A stretch of DNA of 64,000 nt from Alphaproteobacteria bacterium (GTDB taxonomy: Bacteria; Pseudomonadota; Alphaproteobacteria; MPNO01). Of this stretch, positions 2,861 through 19,427 are shown piece by piece (position 1 is the stretch's first letter; each line of letters begins with the position of its first letter). The position numbers were made by a program, and so were the translations under genes. A model generated the notes under the pieces. The model had not been told where the DNA came from and made no database searches. It saw nothing but the letters and a program-made list of their open reading frames with translations. Where the stretch lies: assembly GCA_965242495.1 (NCBI GenBank), contig OZ251446.1:540844-604843 (forward strand), read 5' to 3'.

Positions 2861-4681
2861 ATGTGCGGGATCATCGGCGTCGTCGGCGAGCGGGAGGCCG
2901 CCCCGCTGCTGATCGACGGGCTGCGGCGGCTGGAATACCGGGGCTACGATTCCGCCGGCATCGCGACGCTCCGCGACGGGGTCGTCGAGCGCCGCCGCGC
3001 CGAGGGCAAGCTCGCCGGGCTCGAGGCCCTGCTGGCGGCGGAGCCGGCCGCCGGCGCGATCGGCATCGGCCATACCCGTTGGGCCACCCATGGCCCGCCC
3101 AGCCGGACCAACGCCCATCCGCACGCCGACGACCGCGTCGTCCTGGTGCATAACGGCATCGTCGAGAACTTCCAGGCGTTGCGCCGCGAGCTCGAGGCGG
3201 CCGGGCATCGCTTCGAGACCGAGACCGACAGCGAGGCCGTGGTCCATCTCGTCAGCCGCTATCTGCGCCGGGGGCGGACCCCGCAGGAGGCCGTCGCCGC
3301 GGCGCTGGGGCGGCTCGAGGGCGCGTTCGCCCTGGCGATCCTGTTCGCCGGGCGGGGCGATCTGATGATCGGGGCGCGGCGCGGGAGCCCGCTCGCGGTC
3401 GGCTATGGCGAGGGCGAGACGTATCTGGGTTCGGACGCGCTGGCCCTGGCGCCTCTGACCCGGCGAATCTGCTATCTGGAGGACGGCGACTGGGTGGAGG
3501 TCACGACCGCGGGGGCCGTGATCCACGACGGCTCCGGCGCGGTGGTCGAGCGCCCGGTCCGGCGGACCGAGGCGTCGGGGGCGCCGGTCGGCAAGGGGAA
3601 TTATCCCCATTTCATGCTCAAGGAGATCCACGAACAGCCCGCAGTCATCGGCGAGACGCTGCACAGCGTGCTGGATCCGTGGAGCGAAACCGCGACCCTG
3701 CCGGCGGCGCTCGATCCCGAACGGCTGGCCAAGGTCACGATCGTCGCCTGCGGCACCTCCTATCACGCCGGGCAGGTCGCCAAGTACTGGCTGGAGCGGA
3801 TCGCGCGGGCGGCGGTCGAGGCGGACATCGCGTCGGAGTTCCGCTACCGCGACGCGGTGATGCCGCCGGGCGGGACGGCGCTGTTCATCTCGCAGTCGGG
3901 TGAGACCGCGGACACGCTGGCGGCGCTTCGCCATGCGCGGGCGCGCGGCCAGTACGCGATCTCGATCGTCAACGTCGCCGAGAGCTCGATGGCCCGCGAG
4001 TCGGACCTGGCGCTGCGCACCCGGGCCGGACCCGAGATCGGCGTCGCCTCGACCAAGGCGTTCACGACGCAGCTGGCCATGCTCGCCTGCCTGACGATCG
4101 CGGTGGCGGCGCGGCGCGGCGCGATCGACCGCGCGCGCGAGGCCGAGCTGTGCCGGGGGCTCACCGAACTGCCGTCCCGCGTCAACGAGGTGCTCGTCCG
4201 CGACCGGCGGATCGCCGACCTCGCGCGCGAGATCGCCGAGGCGCGCGACGTGCTCTATCTCGGCCGCGGGACCGGCTACCCGATCGCCCTGGAGGGCGCG
4301 CTCAAGCTGAAGGAGATCTCCTACATCCACGCCGAGGGGTACGCCGCGGGCGAGATGAAGCACGGCCCGATCGCGCTGGTCGACGAGACCGTGCCGGTGA
4401 TCGCGATCGCGCCGCCCGACGATCTGTTCGACAAGACCGCCTCGAACCTGCGGGAGGTCGCCGCCCGCGGCGGGCGGGTGATCGTGCTGTCGGACGCGGA
4501 GGGGATCGAGAGACTCGCCGACGTCGCCGCCGCGACGATCGAACTGCCGTCGGCCCATCCGCTGGCGGCGCCGATCCTCTACGCCGTCCCGGCGCAGCTG
4601 CTGGCCTATCACGCCGCCGTCGCCAGGGGCGCCGACGTCGACCAGCCGCGCAACCTCGCCAAGTCGGTGACCGTGGAGTAG
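2861..4681 (+). CDS. glmS: glutamine--fructose-6-phosphate aminotransferase (isomerizing)
   Basis: 606 aa. The N-terminus is MCGIIGVV with a Cys2 amidotransferase nucleophile, followed by two SIS domains. It sits immediately downstream of glmU in the classical glmUS arrangement. Confidence 0.95.
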   Translation: MCGIIGVVGEREAAPLLIDGLRRLEYRGYDSAGIATLRDGVVERRRAEGKLAGLEALLAAEPAAGAIGIGHTRWATHGPPSRTNAHPHADDRVVLVHNGIVENFQALRRELEAAGHRFETETDSEAVVHLVSRYLRRGRTPQEAVAAALGRLEGAFALAILFAGRGDLMIGARRGSPLAVGYGEGETYLGSDALALAPLTRRICYLEDGDWVEVTTAGAVIHDGSGAVVERPVRRTEASGAPVGKGNYPHFMLKEIHEQPAVIGETLHSVLDPWSETATLPAALDPERLAKVTIVACGTSYHAGQVAKYWLERIARAAVEADIASEFRYRDAVMPPGGTALFISQSGETADTLAALRHARARGQYAISIVNVAESSMARESDLALRTRAGPEIGVASTKAFTTQLAMLACLTIAVAARRGAIDRAREAELCRGLTELPSRVNEVLVRDRRIADLAREIAEARDVLYLGRGTGYPIALEGALKLKEISYIHAEGYAAGEMKHGPIALVDETVPVIAIAPPDDLFDKTASNLREVAARGGRVIVLSDAEGIERLADVAAATIELPSAHPLAAPILYAVPAQLLAYHAAVARGADVDQPRNLAKSVTVE

Positions 4682-4754: not shown

Positions 4755-5705
4755 ATGCCGCAAGCCGTGGTCTATCTCGACGGCGCGTTCTTGCCCGAGA
4801 GCGAGGCGCGAATATCGGTGTTCGACCTGGGGTTCACCAGCGGCGATGCGGTCTACGAGGTGACGCGGACCTTCGGCCATCGCCTGTTCCGGCTCGACGC
4901 GCATGTCGACCGGCTGTTCCGGTCGCTGCGCTACGCCCGCATCGACTGCGGGCTCGACCGCGACGCGATGATCGCGGCGTCGCGCGAGACGTCGGCGCGC
5001 AATCTCGGCCGGCTGGGCGACCGGGACGACCATTCCCTGTGGCACGTCGTGAGCCGGGGCTCCCGCGTCGGCGGGCAAGGGGCCACGCTGGCGATCTTCT
5101 GCCTGCCGGTCGAGTTCGACGAGTTCGCCCGCGAATACGTCGAGGGCGTGACGCTGGTGACGCCGGCGACCCGGCGCATCCCGCCGCAGAGCCTGGAGGC
5201 CAAGGCCAAGATCGCCAACAAGATGAACCACAAGATCGCGGTCTTCGAGGCGCGGCAGGCCGATCCCCGGGCCACGCCGCTGATGCTCGACATCGACGGC
5301 AACGTAAGCGAGACCGACCGGGCGAACTTCTTCTTCGTCCGGGACGGCGCGCTGTTCACCTCCACCGCCCGCAACGTGTTGGGCGGCATCACCCGCGAGG
5401 CGGCGATCGAACTCGCGGGCGAACTCGGCATCGAGGTCAACGAGGGCGACTTCACGCCCTACGACGTCTACAACGCCGAGGAGGCCTTCACCACCGGGAC
5501 CAGCGCCACCGTGGCCCCGGTCGGGGCGCTCAACGGGCTGCGGATCGGCGCCGCCTTGCCCGGTCCGGTGACGATGCGGCTGATCCGCGCCTTCAACGAT
5601 CTGTTCGGCTTCGACTACGTGGCCCAGGCGCTCGACCATCTGGGCGACAACGAGCGCGGCGCGCTGCTGTCGGCCTGGCGGGAGCGGCTGGCGGACCGGA
5701 CGTAG
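4755..5705 (+). CDS. class IV aminotransferase (branched-chain amino acid / D-amino acid aminotransferase family)
   Basis: 316 aa: MPQAVVYLDGAFLPESEARISVFDLGFTSGDAVYEV…, a fold-type IV PLP enzyme pattern. GGAGGA lies 6 nt upstream of the ATG. Confidence 0.8.
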   Translation: MPQAVVYLDGAFLPESEARISVFDLGFTSGDAVYEVTRTFGHRLFRLDAHVDRLFRSLRYARIDCGLDRDAMIAASRETSARNLGRLGDRDDHSLWHVVSRGSRVGGQGATLAIFCLPVEFDEFAREYVEGVTLVTPATRRIPPQSLEAKAKIANKMNHKIAVFEARQADPRATPLMLDIDGNVSETDRANFFFVRDGALFTSTARNVLGGITREAAIELAGELGIEVNEGDFTPYDVYNAEEAFTTGTSATVAPVGALNGLRIGAALPGPVTMRLIRAFNDLFGFDYVAQALDHLGDNERGALLSAWRERLADRT

Positions 5706-15670: not shown

Positions 15671-16464
15671 GGCGCGTCCCCGGCCCGGATCAGCCGGCGC
15701 AGCAGCTCCGCCTGGCGGGCGAGCAGGACCGGGTCGGCCGGGTCGCGCGGGGCGGGGCCCGGCGGCTCCAGCGCCCGGTCGAGACGGGCCGGCTTGCCCG
15801 ACATGACGTGGATGCGGTCGGCGAGCCGCAGCGCTTCCTGCGGATCGTGGGTCACCAGCAGCACGGTGCGGCCGACCAGCAGCTCGGCGGCGAGCGCCTG
15901 GAGGCGCGCCCGGGTGATGGCGTCGAGGGCCGAGAAGGGCTCGTCCATCAGCACCACCGGACGGTCCTCCAGCAAAGTCCGCGCCAAGGCCGCGCGCTGG
16001 CGCATGCCGCCCGAGCAGGCCGCCGGCCGGTCGTCCTGCCGGTCGTCCAGTCCGACCCGGGCCAGCAGCGCCCGCGCGCGCCGCCGCAAGGCCGGGTCGC
16101 CGCGCCGCGCGCCGCGCAGCCGGGCGCCCAGCGCCACGTTGTCGAGCAGGCTGAGCCAGGGCAGCAGCAGGTCCTGCTGCGCCATGTAGGCGGCGCGCCC
16201 GGCGAGGGGACGGCCGTCGCTGCACGATATCCGCGTGCCCGCCGACATCGGCGCCAACCCGGCGATCGCGCGCAGCAGGCTGGTCTTGCCGACGCCGCTG
16301 GGACCCAGCAGGCAGGTCCAGCCCCCGCCTTCGAGGGTGAATTCGAGATCGTCGAACAGAATTTCCGCCCCGAAGGAGAGCCGCGCCGCCTCGACGATCA
16401 CCGCCGGCGGCGGCGACGGCGGGTTCGGATCGGGGGCGGCGGGTCGTCGCTGGCTCAACTGCAC
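15667..16464 (-). CDS. ABC transporter ATP-binding protein (ThiZ-like)
   Basis: 265 aa with Walker A (GPSGVGKTS), the signature motif (CSGGMRQRAALAR) and Walker B (VVLMDEPFSALD). Confidence 0.85.
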   Translation of the reverse strand: MQLSQRRPAAPDPNPPSPPPAVIVEAARLSFGAEILFDDLEFTLEGGGWTCLLGPSGVGKTSLLRAIAGLAPMSAGTRISCSDGRPLAGRAAYMAQQDLLLPWLSLLDNVALGARLRGARRGDPALRRRARALLARVGLDDRQDDRPAACSGGMRQRAALARTLLEDRPVVLMDEPFSALDAITRARLQALAAELLVGRTVLLVTHDPQEALRLADRIHVMSGKPARLDRALEPPGPAPRDPADPVLLARQAELLRRLIRAGDAP

Positions 16465-16556
16465 TGGTCCCTACGCCGGTGCGAACCGGATCAGGTTCGA
16501 GGGGTCGTCCGCGTATCGGACCTCTCAGCCGGGCGAACCGGCTCCCCCCAGTGGAG
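16465..16556 (-). ncRNA. TPP (thiamine pyrophosphate) riboswitch, THI-box, in the 5-prime leader of the NMT1-type ABC importer operon
   Basis: The minus-strand sequence reads GGGGGAGCCGGUUCGCCCGGCUGAGAGGUCCGAUACGCGGACGACCCCUCGAACCUGAUCCGGUUCGCACCGGCGUAGGGACCAGUGCAG. It contains the conserved CUGAGA, ACCUGAUC and CGGCGUAGGGA THI-box elements. The aptamer 3-prime end abuts and pairs over the GTG start of the ATPase gene. Confidence 0.85.
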
Positions 16557-16638
16557 GAGCGACTATGCGCCCGCCGCCCAGGCATGGCAAGCCCCGTCCC
16601 GGTCCGAGTTCGCCCGCGGGCGGGCGGAGCGATCCGGT

Positions 16639-16666
16639 TTGACAGGCGGCGGGCTGCGCCTATACT
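16639..16666 (+). promoter_or_regulatory. candidate sigma-70 promoter of rpsD (TTGACA-16nt-TATACT), giving a ~90-nt leader
   Basis: TTGACA at 16639-16644 and TATACT at 16661-16666 with 16-nt spacing. This is near-consensus in an otherwise GC-rich intergenic region. Confidence 0.55.
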
Positions 16667-16759
16667 CCGCCGCCTTCCCGGGGAAGAGGGCCGGGGGCCC
16701 GTCGCCGGCGAGGTCCGGGCGCGAACGATCGGGACAGCGACGAACGAAGGACGCGGCGC

Positions 16760-17374
16760 ATGACCAAGCGGTTGCAGTCGAAATACAAGATCAACCGGCG
16801 CCTCGGCGTCAATCTCTGGGGGCGGCCGAAAAGCCCGATCAACATGCGGGACTACGGCCCCGGCGAGCACGGCCAGCGTCGGCGCAAGCCGTCCGACTTC
16901 GGCATCCAGCTGAAGGCCAAGCAGAAGCTCAAGGGCTATTACGGCAACGTCACCGAACGGCAGTTCCGCCGGACTTACGAAGAGGCCGTGCGGCGGCGCG
17001 GCGACACGATCGAGAACCTGATCGGGCTGCTCGAACAGCGGCTCGACAGCGTGGTCTACCGGCTCAAATTCGTCCCTACCGTGTTCGCGTCGCGCCAGTT
17101 CATCAATCACGGACACGTCAAGGTGAACGGCCGGCGGGTCACGATCCCGTCCTATCGGGTCCGCGAGGGCGACGTGATCGAGATACGCGACCGGTCGCGC
17201 GAGATCCCGGTCCTGCTCGAAGCGATCGAATCCCCGGAGCGCGACGTGCCCGACTATCTCGACGTCGACTACAACAAGATGCAGGGGAGCTTGCTCCGCA
17301 TTCCCAAATTCGCCGACGTCCCCTATCCGGTGCAGATGGAGCCCAACCTGGTGGTCGAGTATTACTCGCGTTAG
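16760..17374 (+). CDS. rpsD: 30S ribosomal protein S4
   Basis: 204 aa: [43 protein letters not shown]…, with the canonical S4 N-terminus and S4 RNA-binding domain. Confidence 0.95.
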
Positions 17375-17377
17375 CTC

Positions 17378-17773
17378 GCATTTCTCATACTGGCAGCGGT
17401 CTGCGCCGCGTTCGGGTGACGCGATCCGCCAGGAAAAGGCCTCGCCCGCACCCGGCTCGCCGCCGCAAGCTGCGCAAGATCGGCATCCGGATCGGGATCG
17501 GCGCGCGCCGGGTCAAGATCGCCATGGCCCCCATCCCTGGAAGGACGAGTTCACCATCGCCCGCCGCCGACTATTCACCGCCGCAGCGTGAAGCGGCTCT
17601 CACGCGCGCTTCTTTCCAACAACACAGAACGGCCCCAGGACGACCCAACCGCCAACCGGCGGGCGCCGACGCGCGCCCCGAAAACGCCGCAGCCACACAA
17701 CACAAACCCAATCGCCGCCGCTCACCCGCGCCAGGACGTCAGACCCTCAGCCCTCGACAGGTATGAGAAATGC
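17378..17773. repeat. 396-bp non-coding segment bounded by 13-bp perfect inverted repeats (GCATTTCTCATAC … GTATGAGAAATGC); a MITE-like element or a structured RNA with a long closing helix
   Basis: The arms at 17378-17390 and 17761-17773 are exact reverse complements. The arms are AT-rich in a ~70% GC background. There is no credible ORF inside; the 74-aa ORF 17588..17812 is Pro/Arg-rich filler. The segment starts 3 nt after the rpsD stop. Confidence 0.5.
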
Positions 17774-17786
17774 AAATTAGGGTTTA

Positions 17787-17805
17787 CCCCCCCCCCCCCC
17801 GGGGG
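17787..17805. repeat. homopolymeric C14 G5 tract, 60 nt upstream of the NHLP-leader gene start
   Basis: cccccccccccccc at 17787-17800 is followed by ggggg at 17801-17805. Tracts of this length are slipped-strand-mispairing prone; it could also be an assembly artifact. Confidence 0.6.
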
Positions 17806-17864
17806 CGTATGACGGTCAGGTCCGCCCGCGGGCGGAGTGATCCAAGGAACGGAAGGCGAGAGAG

Positions 17865-18488
17865 ATGACGGACGAGAAGACCGACGGCGGCCGCTGGACG
17901 GAGATGGAGGAGAGCTGGCGCAGGGACCCCGGGTTCCGCTCGCGGATGGAGGCGGACCCGAGGGCGGCGCTGGCCGAGCACGGAATCGAGATTCCGAGCG
18001 GCGTCGACGTGCGCCTCGCGGTGGACAGCGAGGACACGATCCACGTGGTGGCCCCGCCCGACCCCAACCGCGCGATGTCGGACGACGATCTCGGCGTCGT
18101 CGTCGGCGGGACCGGCAGGATGACGTACGAGGAGTGGTCCGCCAGACTGGACAACCTCATACAGCGCTCCCGGAGCGGCGACTGCTTCCTGACCACGGCG
18201 GTGGCGGGGCGCCGGGGCGAGGCGGACGACGGGCCGACGCTGTCGGCGCTGCGGGGCTTCCGCGACGGCTACATGTCGGAGACGGAGGAGCGCCGGGAGA
18301 TGGTCGCGGCCTACTACGAGACGGCGCCCGCGATCGTCGCGGCGATCCCGGCCGGTCACGCCGACTGGGACTGGATCGGCGAGCGGATCGACGCCGCCGT
18401 CGCGGCGATCAGCGACGGCGACGGCGACGCGGCCTTCGACGTCTACGCCGGCATGGTCAGGCGCCTGACCAGCCGCTGGCTCGGATAG
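17865..18488 (+). CDS. nitrile-hydratase-leader-peptide (NHLP) family RiPP-type precursor; an 82-aa leader ending in Gly-Gly fused to a 125-aa C-terminal domain of unknown function
   Basis: The N-terminus EESWRRDPGFRSRMEADPRAALAEHGIEIPSGVDVRLAVDSEDTIHVVAPPDPNRAMSDDDLGVVVGG matches the NHLP leader consensus (…W.DP.FR..L.ADPKAALAEHGIEIPEGVEVRVVENTADTLHLVLPPKP….LSDEELE.VAGG) almost position for position, including the terminal double-Gly cleavage motif. The downstream region (TGRMTYEEWSARLDNLIQRSRSGDCFLTTAVAG…) has a single Cys and looks like a folded domain rather than a Cys/Ser/Thr-rich core peptide. Confidence 0.7.
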   Translation: MTDEKTDGGRWTEMEESWRRDPGFRSRMEADPRAALAEHGIEIPSGVDVRLAVDSEDTIHVVAPPDPNRAMSDDDLGVVVGGTGRMTYEEWSARLDNLIQRSRSGDCFLTTAVAGRRGEADDGPTLSALRGFRDGYMSETEERREMVAAYYETAPAIVAAIPAGHADWDWIGERIDAAVAAISDGDGDAAFDVYAGMVRRLTSRWLG

Positions 18489-18725
18489 CCGCGGCGGACC
18501 GACGATAGCCGCGCCCGCGGCGCTGCTGCTGCGGGCCGGCGGGCGCAGGGCGGCGCGACGCCCCTTGAACCGAGGTCGAACAGGGGCGCGGTCCCGACTT
18601 CCTACGCCTCGCCAGCGCCCTCTTCGCCTTCCACCCGCGTGGCGGCGTGGAACAGCGGCCGCCGGACGTCATGCTGCTCGCGGCGCTCCGATGAGCCCGG
18701 ATACCGCTTGCCGCAGAGGAAGAAC

Positions 18726-18960
18726 ATGACGGAGGCCGAACCTCTATCTCGCTTCACCGAGCGGCCCGAGGTCTTCGGCGGCAAGCCGATCATTCGCGAC
18801 ATGCGGATCGCGGTGGAGCATGTCTTGCGGGATGTTGGCGGCGGACGACGGCGCGGAGGCCATTCTCGACGAGCGCCCGGAGCTGGGCCCCGGCGGATGT
18901 TCGGGCGCGCCTGCCGTTCGCCCATCGCGCGGGCGTCGCGGCTCCGACCCGGCGGGGTAG
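18726..18960 (+). pseudogene. frameshifted DUF433-family (antitoxin-like) gene remnant
   Basis: A strong RBS (AGAGGAAG) and ATG at 18726 give [37 protein letters not shown], a good DUF433 N-half (…dPev.gGkPvIrGtRipV..iL..l…). Recovering the C-half (…[19 protein letters not shown] / [14 protein letters not shown]…) requires two frame changes. No DUF5615/PIN partner is adjacent. Confidence 0.35.
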
Positions 18961-19427
18961 GGCAGCGGCAGGGAGGTCCGGTATTTCACCTGGTTGAGGG
19001 CGAAGCTCGACTTGATGCTGGCGACGCCGGGCGCGCGGGTCAGATGGTCCTTCAGGAAGGCTTCGTAAGCCTCGACGTCGGCGACTACGACCCGTAACAG
19101 ATAGTCGGCGTCGCCGGTCATCAGATAGCACTCCATCACCTCGGGTCGTTGCAGGATCGCCCGCTCGAACGTCTCCAGAGCGCGCTCCACCTGGCGTTCC
19201 AGCGTGACCTGGACGAATACGCTGACCGGCAGCCCGACCGCGGCGGGGTCCAGCAGCGATACGTGACTCTTGATCACGCCGGCGCGTTCGAGTTCGCGCA
19301 CGCGCCGCAGACAGGGAGACGGCGACAGGCCGACATGGCGCGCAAGATCGGCGTTGGAGACGCGCGCGTTCTCCTGGAGCAGGTCGAGAATCCGACAATC
19401 GATTCCATCAAGCGGCGTTTTCGGCAT
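18744..19427 (-). CDS. Lrp/AsnC-family transcriptional regulator (with a ~70-aa low-complexity C-terminal extension, or a lost stop)
   Basis: The N-terminal 155 aa are a canonical Lrp helix-turn-helix plus RAM domain ([56 protein letters not shown]…[15 protein letters not shown]). The ORF continues Pro/Ser/Arg-rich to 18744, overlapping the DUF433 remnant on the other strand. Confidence 0.8.

Follow-up and report, generated by a model that had tools for sequence, protein, structure and literature searches.

The window analysed here is a 64-kb stretch (64,000 nucleotides) of DNA from an alphaproteobacterium. In it, the gene for ribosomal protein S4 (rpsD) is separated from a gene for an NHLP-like product by a 396-bp segment bounded by inverted repeats; the features of this region are collected in Table 1. 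The left arm, GCATTTCTCATAC (17378-17390), is the exact reverse complement of 17761-17773, and pairing of the two arms continues imperfectly to a length of 26 nt (77%). Inspection of the sequence bore out what a preliminary description had reported about these arms: they are perfect reverse complements, the left one starts 3 nt past the rpsD stop codon (TAG, 17372-17374), and both are conspicuously AT-rich for this genome (38% G+C, compared with 69% for the window). The 64-kb window contains eight different inverted repeats, this one included, that are perfect over 13 bp or more and lie within 600 nt; all the others have a G+C content of 69-100%. Counted as overlapping positions, inverted repeats were seen 12 times, for 6.1 expected in Markov shuffles; the GC-rich ones are as chance gives, because of the composition of the window. 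Restricting the arms to 40% G+C or less gives an analytic expectation of 0.0012 inverted repeats per window, and 200 shuffles yielded no such case.

Table 1. Features of the rpsD-lrp/asnC region (positions in the window; a dot stands for no strand)
Feature	Position	Strand	Basis
rpsD (ribosomal protein S4)	16760..17374	+	204-aa ORF; Pfam Ribosomal_S4 and S4 on identical product
Left flank TTAG (YTAR type), candidate target or copy of a target-site duplication	17371..17374	.	family flanks
Internally deleted, non-autonomous IS1380-family element, 402 bp (very probable assignment)	17375..17776	+ (strand of transposase remnant)	ends, flanks, remnant, stop-to-end distance
Left sub-terminal region	17377..17441	+	78-85% identity over 60-65 nt to MITE-like ends
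Left 13-bp arm GCATTTCTCATAC, IRR type (..CATACTGG)	17378..17390	+	as in family MITEs
Block of 1551 bp: IS remnant, NHLP-like cassette and DUF433 pseudogene	17379..18929	.	absent in L122 and L123 (BLASTN)
Transposase pseudogene remnant, last ~51 codons and TGA stop (17589-17591)	17438..17591	+	DNA-profile and BLASTN matches
Terminator-like hairpin (17586-17605) and T-rich tail	17586..17615	+	overlaps transposase stop; consensus match only
IS 3' non-coding tail, C-/A-rich, G-poor	17592..17760	+	GC skew -0.30 to -0.39
Right 13-bp arm (IRR)	17761..17773	-	terminal 25 nt identical to L074 6257-6281
NHLP-like cassette	17774..18523 (~17774-18500/18523)	+	85-93% nucleotide identity to L125, L126 and L127
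Right flank TTAG	17777..17780	.	also within the neighbouring cassette motif GCGAAATTAGGGTT
DUF433 pseudogene, two frameshifts, right end of block	18726..18929	+	reconstructed 69-aa product, PF04255 1.2e-15
Lrp/AsnC regulator gene, natural 3' end displaced by block	18744..19427	-	Pfam domain end, junction sequences

A collection of genomes, with one genome per species, was scanned with GCATTTCTCATACYKG. Among the matches listed, most were chance matches in unrelated phyla, and a coherent set came from high-GC Alphaproteobacteria (Inquilinaceae, Kiloniellales and genomes named 'Alphaproteobacteria bacterium'). All members of the coherent set read YTAG-CCC-GCATTTCTCATAC-(T/C)GG..., with a conserved sub-terminal sequence after the 13-mer. 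Single genomes contributed at least two to three loci each among the matches listed (L027, L073 and L078 in one genome, L047 and L074 in another). Pairing of the arms delimited MITE-like elements of 180-283 bp (L073, L010, L085 and L011; also L145 and L159), and a full-length copy of 1651 bp with the same termini was present in L095 (4803-6453), where a 459-aa ORF encodes an IS1380 transposase (PF13701, 2.3e-153; NCBIfam NF033539, 4.2e-120).

The IS1380 family is defined by a DDE transposase (NCBIfam NF033539 / Pfam PF13701), by short terminal inverted repeats that begin with CC and by a direct target duplication of 4-5 bp; its autonomous members measure ~1.55-2.0 kb. A scan of the JGI metagenomes with CCCGCATTTCTCATACTGG gave 34 loci. 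Flanks of the YTAR type (CTAG, TTAG, CTAA, TTAA or ATAG) were found in 33 of them, and 25 of the 34 contained transposase sequence, 67-96% identical to that of L095 over the aligned stretches. Complete copies (n=15) were 1648-1688 bp long and ended in YTAR/CCCGCATTTCTCA...GGG/YTAR (slashes mark the ends of elements here and below); the left end (IRL) of the full-length ISs is CCCGCATTTCTCACCG and the right end (IRR) is CCCGCATTTCTCATACTGG. The two flanking tetranucleotides were unequal in about 10 of about 25 complete elements, in seven cases only at the outer Y or R; the target duplication of this clade may be of 2 bp (TA) rather than strictly of 4 bp (YTAR). An IS5-type element, suggested by the YTAR flanks, was considered and dropped; the associated transposase is of the IS1380 type. 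Relatives annotated as 'IS1380 family transposase' are carried by Rhizobium, Bradyrhizobium and Acetobacter plasmids, at ~71-73% nucleotide identity. One of these, on plasmid p3 of Rhizobium leguminosarum GLR17 (NZ_CP071629.1, ~270886-272531; transposase WP_168289381.1), reads TTAG/CCCGAATCTCTCA...TGAGAAATGCGGG/TTAG at its ends, with a clean TTAG duplication. In conclusion, sequence comparison indicates that the 13-mer forms the inverted terminal repeats of a clade of IS1380-family elements in high-GC Alphaproteobacteria; this clade, together with its MITEs, may be uncatalogued so far. Occurrence of the 13-mer at this locus alone, which the preliminary description would have counted towards a refutation, was not observed: the same end recurs at dozens of alphaproteobacterial genome and metagenome loci, some with and others without a transposase gene.

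In the window, the 13-mer of both arms is the IRR of the 15 complete copies (CCCGCATTTCTCATAC), and an IRR profile matched the left arm on the minus strand (17395-17377, nhmmer, E=0.007). The MITE-like ends that resemble the left sub-terminal region are those of L011, L049, L010, L073, L085, L145 and L159. An nhmmer profile made from the last 340 nt of 10 distinct full-length ISs was searched against the whole 64-kb window and matched only inside the segment; the main match (17462-17595, plus strand, E=8.1e-11) covers the end of the transposase gene through its TGA codon. Comparison with the Rhizobium copy by blastn carries the homology back to 17438. The reading frame of the gene remnant shifts twice, near 17474 and again near 17531, where 4 nt are deleted. 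Its three successive frames (GLARTRLAAASCA / RKLRKIGIRIGIGARRVKIAMA / PHPWKDEFTIARRRLFTAAA, the last followed by the stop) are collinear with RRLGLAHTRLADATCGTIRLKLLKIGAQVRVSVRRIKVAMASACPYAEEFALAHARICAAAR and stop, the C-terminus of the annotated R. leguminosarum IS1380-family transposase. A pairwise tblastn of remnant and transposase gave E=0.005; taken alone at the protein level, the remnant matched weakly (hmmsearch, E=0.05 and 0.13). There is no intact transposase-related ORF within the 402-bp element. The earlier statement that nothing credibly coding lies between the arms was therefore right with respect to intact ORFs, but it missed the frameshifted transposase remnant.

The distance from the transposase stop codon to the right end is 174-180 nt in 13 of the 15 complete copies, and 185 nt in the window, where the element ends at 17776. 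The tail of the Rhizobium copy is, like that of the window element, rich in C and A; no homologue of the tail at 17592-17760 was found. The excess of C over G at 17550-17800 belongs to this IS 3' tail. The terminator-like site listed in Table 1 is the sole one in 16550-19000.

We conclude with high confidence that the 396-bp segment derives from an IS1380-family insertion sequence and is a copy now dead or non-autonomous, forming part of a 402-bp element (17375-17776). Ends, flanks, gene remnant and geometry all point to membership of the family by descent. As it lacks the transposase gene and is 402 bp long, below the 1648-1688 bp of complete copies, the segment is a non-functional member. 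From left to right, the element is made up of one IS end, a deletion of ~1.25 kb in the transposase gene, what is left of the 3' part of this gene, the 3' tail and the second IS end; it would have entered by transposition at TTAG and presumably no longer moves on its own. Of the two readings offered by the preliminary description, this agrees with the mobile-element one, in that the arms are IS1380 terminal repeats and the segment is a deletion derivative.

Close relatives lack this region. In two ENA metagenome contigs (L122 and L123), whose S4 proteins are 99% and 98% identical to that of the window and whose flanks are ~96% identical at the nucleotide level, the whole 1551-bp block is absent. 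L123 matches the window up to 17378 (...GCGTTAGCTCG) and again from 18930 (CGGGCGTCGCGG...), L122 behaves alike, and only 4 nt lie between the two flank matches (ATTC in L123, or GTTC). The stop codons of rpsD and of the convergent lrp/asnC gene overlap in one YTAG in both contigs. The element marks the left edge of a 1.55-kb block placed between the otherwise overlapping convergent ends of rpsD and lrp/asnC. This comparison of rpsD downstream regions also upheld the earlier remark that the segment lies beside an accessory NHLP gene. In the 227-residue protein of the window, the last residue of the AsnC_trans_reg domain is 146; in the 156-residue protein of L122 it is 133. The ORF runs on past the ligand-binding domain for ~80 aa in the window, compared with 23 aa in L122; the ~80-aa tail is there because the block removed the natural stop. 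At the other end of the block, the reconstructed DUF433 product covers positions 4-56 of the 56 positions of the PF04255 profile, and ~240 nt separate the NHLP-like gene from this pseudogene. A third relative, the Logan contig L001, encodes an identical S4 protein and is 98% identical to the window over 4.9 kb. It includes the left end and breaks off after 52 nt of the element, which is suggestive of a repeat-induced assembly break.

The uninterrupted sequences bear on the junctions of the element. The family consensus is YTAR/CCC-arm...arm-GGG/YTAR, compared with TTAG/CTC-arm...arm-AAA/TTAG in the window. The two TTAGs (17371-17374 and 17777-17780) each lie 3 nt outside an arm, at the position of YTAR in the family. 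They were overlooked in the preliminary description, which found no target-site duplication evident and counted this in favour of an RNA; that argument rested on the oversight. It was observed that the stop codon of rpsD falls within the left TTAG. The uninterrupted left flank, read in L123 after rpsD, is TTAGCTCG, which includes TTAG; on the right, IS-free copies of the cassette read GCGAAATTAG and, with the paralogues, give the motif GCGAAATTAGGGTT. Both window triplets and both TTAGs thus also occur in uninterrupted flanks, and because the triplets equal these flanks the junctions are not those of a textbook insertion with target-site duplication. Either the termini might have mutated after insertion at TTAG, or the outermost CCC/GGG might have been lost, with junctions made via G/GC microhomology. 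The start of the element 3 nt past the rpsD stop would be explained by the rarity of YTAR sites at 69% G+C, since TAG stop codons supply them.

To the right of the element, the cassette consists of an upstream motif (AAATTAGGGTT, 17774-17784), a poly-C14 tract (17787-17800) and the NHLP-like gene (17865-18488), the product of which matches Pfam NHase_alpha (7.5e-7). The cassette occurs in three other, unrelated gene neighbourhoods. In L125 it is flanked by genes for a TRAP transporter and an AAA_22 protein, in L126 by genes for a DsrE-like protein and a 2-hydroxyacid dehydrogenase; the third neighbourhood is that of L127. Its upstream region is made of the motif GCGAAATTAGGGTT followed by poly-C11-14 or by a 9-nt tandem array. 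In L126, a 148-bp element of the same family (3765-3912) stands right after the TAG stop of the upstream gene. The junction of this element with the cassette (...GAGAAATG/AAATTAGGGTTTACC) is at the same point as that of the window (...GAGAAATGC/AAATTAGGGTTTACC). Its sub-terminal sequence is 86-88% identical to those of L047 and L103. Compared with each other, the window and L126 are only ~65-70% alike in the IS sub-terminal sequences and 93% alike in the cassettes, which argues against simple co-inheritance. L162, from the same genome as L126, has a family end 1.5 kb upstream of a paralogue. A hairpin motif present upstream of both rpsD and the NHLP gene (TCGCCCGCGGGCGG) was not enriched in the window (14 matches, 14.3 expected).

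Several other origins of the segment were weighed. The preliminary description had slightly favoured a structured RNA of ~400 nt, or another cis-regulatory RNA, closed by a helix of its two ends. Indeed the predicted minimum-free-energy structure pairs the two ends, and the plus strand is C-rich and G-poor over 17550-17800. However, a search of 16400-18000 against Rfam at E<=10 yielded nothing beyond two noise matches and a TPP riboswitch, which lies outside the segment; the segment itself had no match. When both strands were folded and compared with dinucleotide shuffles, the folding energies were unexceptional (z -1.28 and -1.07; 10 and 16 of 100 shuffles folded as well), and the only robust helix in the segment is the transposon's own terminal repeat. 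Moreover, the ends are transposon termini common to protein-coding ISs, the interior is a transposase gene fragment, and the absence of the segment from close relatives speaks against a conserved role in the regulation of rpsD. The searches run returned no homologue of the segment as a whole. We therefore regard an RNA as very unlikely. A palindrome arisen by chance in the intergenic spacer is more improbable still, to the point of being negligible: 13-bp inverted repeats are common by chance in the window when GC-rich, but only 0.0012 per window are expected when AT-rich, and dozens of IS and MITE copies elsewhere end in this very sequence. A further alternative to a one-off decayed copy is that the 402-bp element belongs to an amplified MITE family still mobilised in trans in its source genome. 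In favour of this, the arms have lost nothing (13/13) and, like the 180-283-bp MITEs, the element has an IRR-type sequence at each end; the short-read contig L001 ends 52 nt inside it, a kind of break that repeats tend to cause; and at least two to three family loci were seen in single other genomes. Against this, the terminal triplets depart from the consensus, and a gene fragment with frameshifts, such as occupies the interior, is what a deletion derivative undergoing decay typically shows. Copies of the interior and right sub-terminal sequence were not found in the window, the fetched loci, plasmids or JGI metagenomes. In particular, there is no second copy of the 402-bp element in the 64-kb window or the fetched loci; BLASTN of the element against 72,556 plasmids gave one irrelevant 38-nt match only; and the right-end 24-mer GCATTTCTCATACCTGTCGAGGGC is absent from the JGI metagenomes. 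The searches run also yielded no full-length parent matching both sub-terminal regions, and a homology search with the reconstructed 46-aa transposase C-terminus gave no candidate for the parent IS. Membership of an amplified family is, in our view, unlikely.

A separate question is whether the IS, when intact, brought the cassette with it. An IS1380-family element might have captured an adjacent NHLP-like cassette, carried it to this site as a module of the ISPme1/ISEcp1 type, and then decayed; on this route, the left end of the IS would act together with a surrogate right end further downstream. In favour of capture, the transposase remnant is oriented towards the NHLP-like gene, with the right end of the IS immediately against the cassette, and block and IS share their left boundary. 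Three other neighbourhoods contain the cassette at 85-93% identity. In one of them (L126) a same-family element abuts it at the same junction, also after a TAG stop, and in the same genome (L162) a family end lies 1.5 kb upstream of the paralogue. However, the right edge of the block (18929/18930) has neither an inverted-repeat-like sequence nor a TTAG repeat, the DUF433 pseudogene lies inside the block but outside the conserved cassette, the cassettes of L125 and L127 have no IS end, and in genomes rich in this IS family the adjacency could be coincidental. The simplest version, in which the 1551-bp block is one clean transposition unit, was rejected, since the right junction shows no inverted repeat and no duplication; features of the right end of the block may have been deleted later. 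Capture at this locus is thus conceivable, and we propose it only tentatively. The broader scenario, in which an IS1380 element captured an NHLP-type (RiPP-precursor-like) cassette with a hypermutable upstream region and moved it between genomes as ISPme1/ISEcp1 modules do, landing at TAG stops as YTAR targets, is more speculative, and we consider it doubtful.

The assignment to the IS1380 family has practical consequences. Genome annotations should list the segment as a remnant of the IS1380 family rather than as a putative RNA gene. The element would account for an accessory NHLP-like gene standing directly behind a ribosomal protein gene, for the abnormal ~80-aa tail of lrp/asnC and, probably, for the break in the short-read assembly of a sister strain at this place. 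The data also define a clade of IS1380 elements and MITEs in high-GC Alphaproteobacteria; because these are YTAR-flanked, they tend to land on TAG stop codons, and there is a hint that they travel next to NHLP-like genes with upstream simple-sequence repeats. Should the capture scenario be true, it would be a candidate case of an IS spreading a phase-variable peptide-precursor gene among environmental Alphaproteobacteria. IS remnants of this kind are commonplace, and the current understanding of transposons is unchanged.

Known systems of the IS1380 family include IS1380 of Acetobacter pasteurianus, ISEcp1 and ISPme1. In ISPme1 modules and ISEcp1 units, transposases of the IS1380 family mobilise the DNA on the 3' side of the IS by means of a surrogate right end (PMC9330008), and truncated ISEcp1 remnants have been documented upstream of passenger or resistance genes (PMC9330008). 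The arrangement in the window resembles these systems in that the right end of the IS is directly upstream of, and co-oriented with, an accessory gene found in varied contexts, and in that the IS is reduced to a few hundred base pairs. It differs from them in having no visible surrogate right end and no duplication flanking the whole unit. Instead of resistance, the passenger gene encodes an NHLP-like product, and a conserved motif of the cassette itself lies upstream of it; a simple promoter scan detected no sigma-70-like outward promoter in the IS remnant.

With the Rhizobium IS1380 copy, the window element shares ends that begin with CC(C), then G(C/A)AT(T/C)TCTCA, and 4-nt YTAR flanks (TTAG on both sides in that copy). 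Full-length copies of the family have a single DDE transposase ORF, and the distance of ~175-185 nt from its stop codon to the right end is common to them and the window element. In contrast to these copies, the window element has lost ~1.25 kb of the transposase gene and is frameshifted twice in the remainder, its terminal triplets are CTC/AAA and its left end is of the IRR type; the nucleotide identity of the remnant to any full-length copy found is only ~70-77%. Like bacterial MITEs, the window element is small, has terminal inverted repeats (13/13), has no functional transposase and belongs to a parent family that encodes one. It differs from them in that no further copies were found and in that it keeps a recognisable gene fragment, and 'deletion derivative' is a better name for it than member of an amplified MITE family.

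The NHLP-like product consists of an N-terminal NHase_alpha-like leader ending in ...VVGG, followed by a C-terminal domain of about 120 aa that also stands alone in other proteins (P0141-P0156). The gene neighbourhood differs from genome to genome, and the paralogues adjoin IS481-family and DUF4096 (IS5-type) transposase genes. NHLP-like genes behave as a mobile, accessory gene family. Coordinates are listed in the table below.

A DUF433 pseudogene, interrupted by two frameshifts, closes the accessory block on the right; its reconstructed product matches PF04255 (1.2e-15). The Lrp/AsnC ORF of the window continues for about 80 aa beyond the ligand-binding domain, this extension being coded antisense to the pseudogene. 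In two metagenome contigs of close relatives that lack the block (L122 and L123), the Lrp/AsnC gene stops 23 aa past the ligand-binding domain and its stop codon overlaps that of rpsD. The natural stop of the Lrp/AsnC gene is displaced by the accessory block.

A GC-rich hairpin with AG(C/T)GATCC after it occurs upstream of the NHLP-like gene and again directly 5' of the -35 box (TTGACA, at 16639) of the rpsD promoter, which matches the consensus at 11 of 12 positions (TTGACA-16-TATACT). This combination is kept in cassette copies from other genomes; its core 14-mer is not enriched within the window. A perfect 15-bp inverted repeat, CGAGTTCGCCCGCGA, is GC-rich and within chance expectation for the window; it has GTTCGCCCGCG in common with the hairpin upstream of rpsD. 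Upstream of the NMT1/ABC-transporter operon, which is divergent from rpsD, lies a TPP riboswitch, an ordinary member of a known family.

A highly repeated REP-like palindromic element (core CCCCCTGCCAGGGGGAGGG) was found in several loci: L126, which carries a cassette; L162, from the same genome; and L047, L074 and L103, which carry IS1380-family ends. In L126 it occupies the inner part of the short, IS-derived element that abuts the cassette and recurs just 3' of the NHLP-like gene, so that 52-nt direct repeats (96%) flank the cassette there on both sides. In L103, two inverted family ends enclose 2 kb with two genes of ordinary appearance. Instead of YTAR, GTCG and TCAG flank these ends; the arrangement may represent a pair of solo ends, or else a structure of composite or module-like type. 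In Hyphomicrobiales, Rhizomicrobium and Sphingomonadales, the scan 16-mer was also encountered within a conserved protein-coding gene (context ...GCAATGCACCATGCAGTTGGCGCATTTCTCATACTTGCCGAC...); these matches do not belong to the IS1380 family and are an unrelated coincidence.

Features and their positions
Feature	Position	Strand	Remarks
NHLP-like gene	window 17865-18488		relatives in L125, L126, L127, L162-L164
DUF433 pseudogene	18726-18929	+	
Lrp/AsnC ORF	18744-19427	-	227 aa
GC-rich hairpin, AG(C/T)GATCC	16608-16637; 17818-17846		two occurrences
Inverted repeat CGAGTTCGCCCGCGA	5120-5134; 5413-5427		arms 278 nt apart
TPP riboswitch	16450-16558	-	RF00059, 75.5 bits, E=1.1e-14
REP-like element	L126 3782-3833, 4732-4783		further copies
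Paired family ends	L103 3411-5426		
16-mer in coding gene	L007, L060, L067, L080, L100, L108, L117, L119		
Motif and repeat, NHLP-like	window 17774-17813; L126 3910-3950; L125 3919-3955; L127 149-190		
Motif and repeat, paralogues	L162 2420-2455; L163 2276-2480; L164 2285-2480		
Poly-C14	17787-17800		

Upstream of all NHLP-like copies examined (window, L125, L126, L127) lies the motif (GCG)A(A/G)ATTAGGGTT, with a simple-sequence repeat after it, and the same holds for all paralogues examined (L162, L163, L164; 50-56% aa identity); the motif was absent from the rest of the window and elsewhere in about 160 fetched loci. The window repeat is a run of 14 C, compared with 7 for the next longest homopolymer in the window; the run is flanked by TTTACC and TATGAC with a 19-nt spacer. 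Four other upstream regions carry C12, C11, C11 and C13, and in L163 and L164 the 9-mer CCAAGGTGC forms a long tandem array. The region upstream of NHLP-like genes looks like a contingency locus of the phase-variable type.
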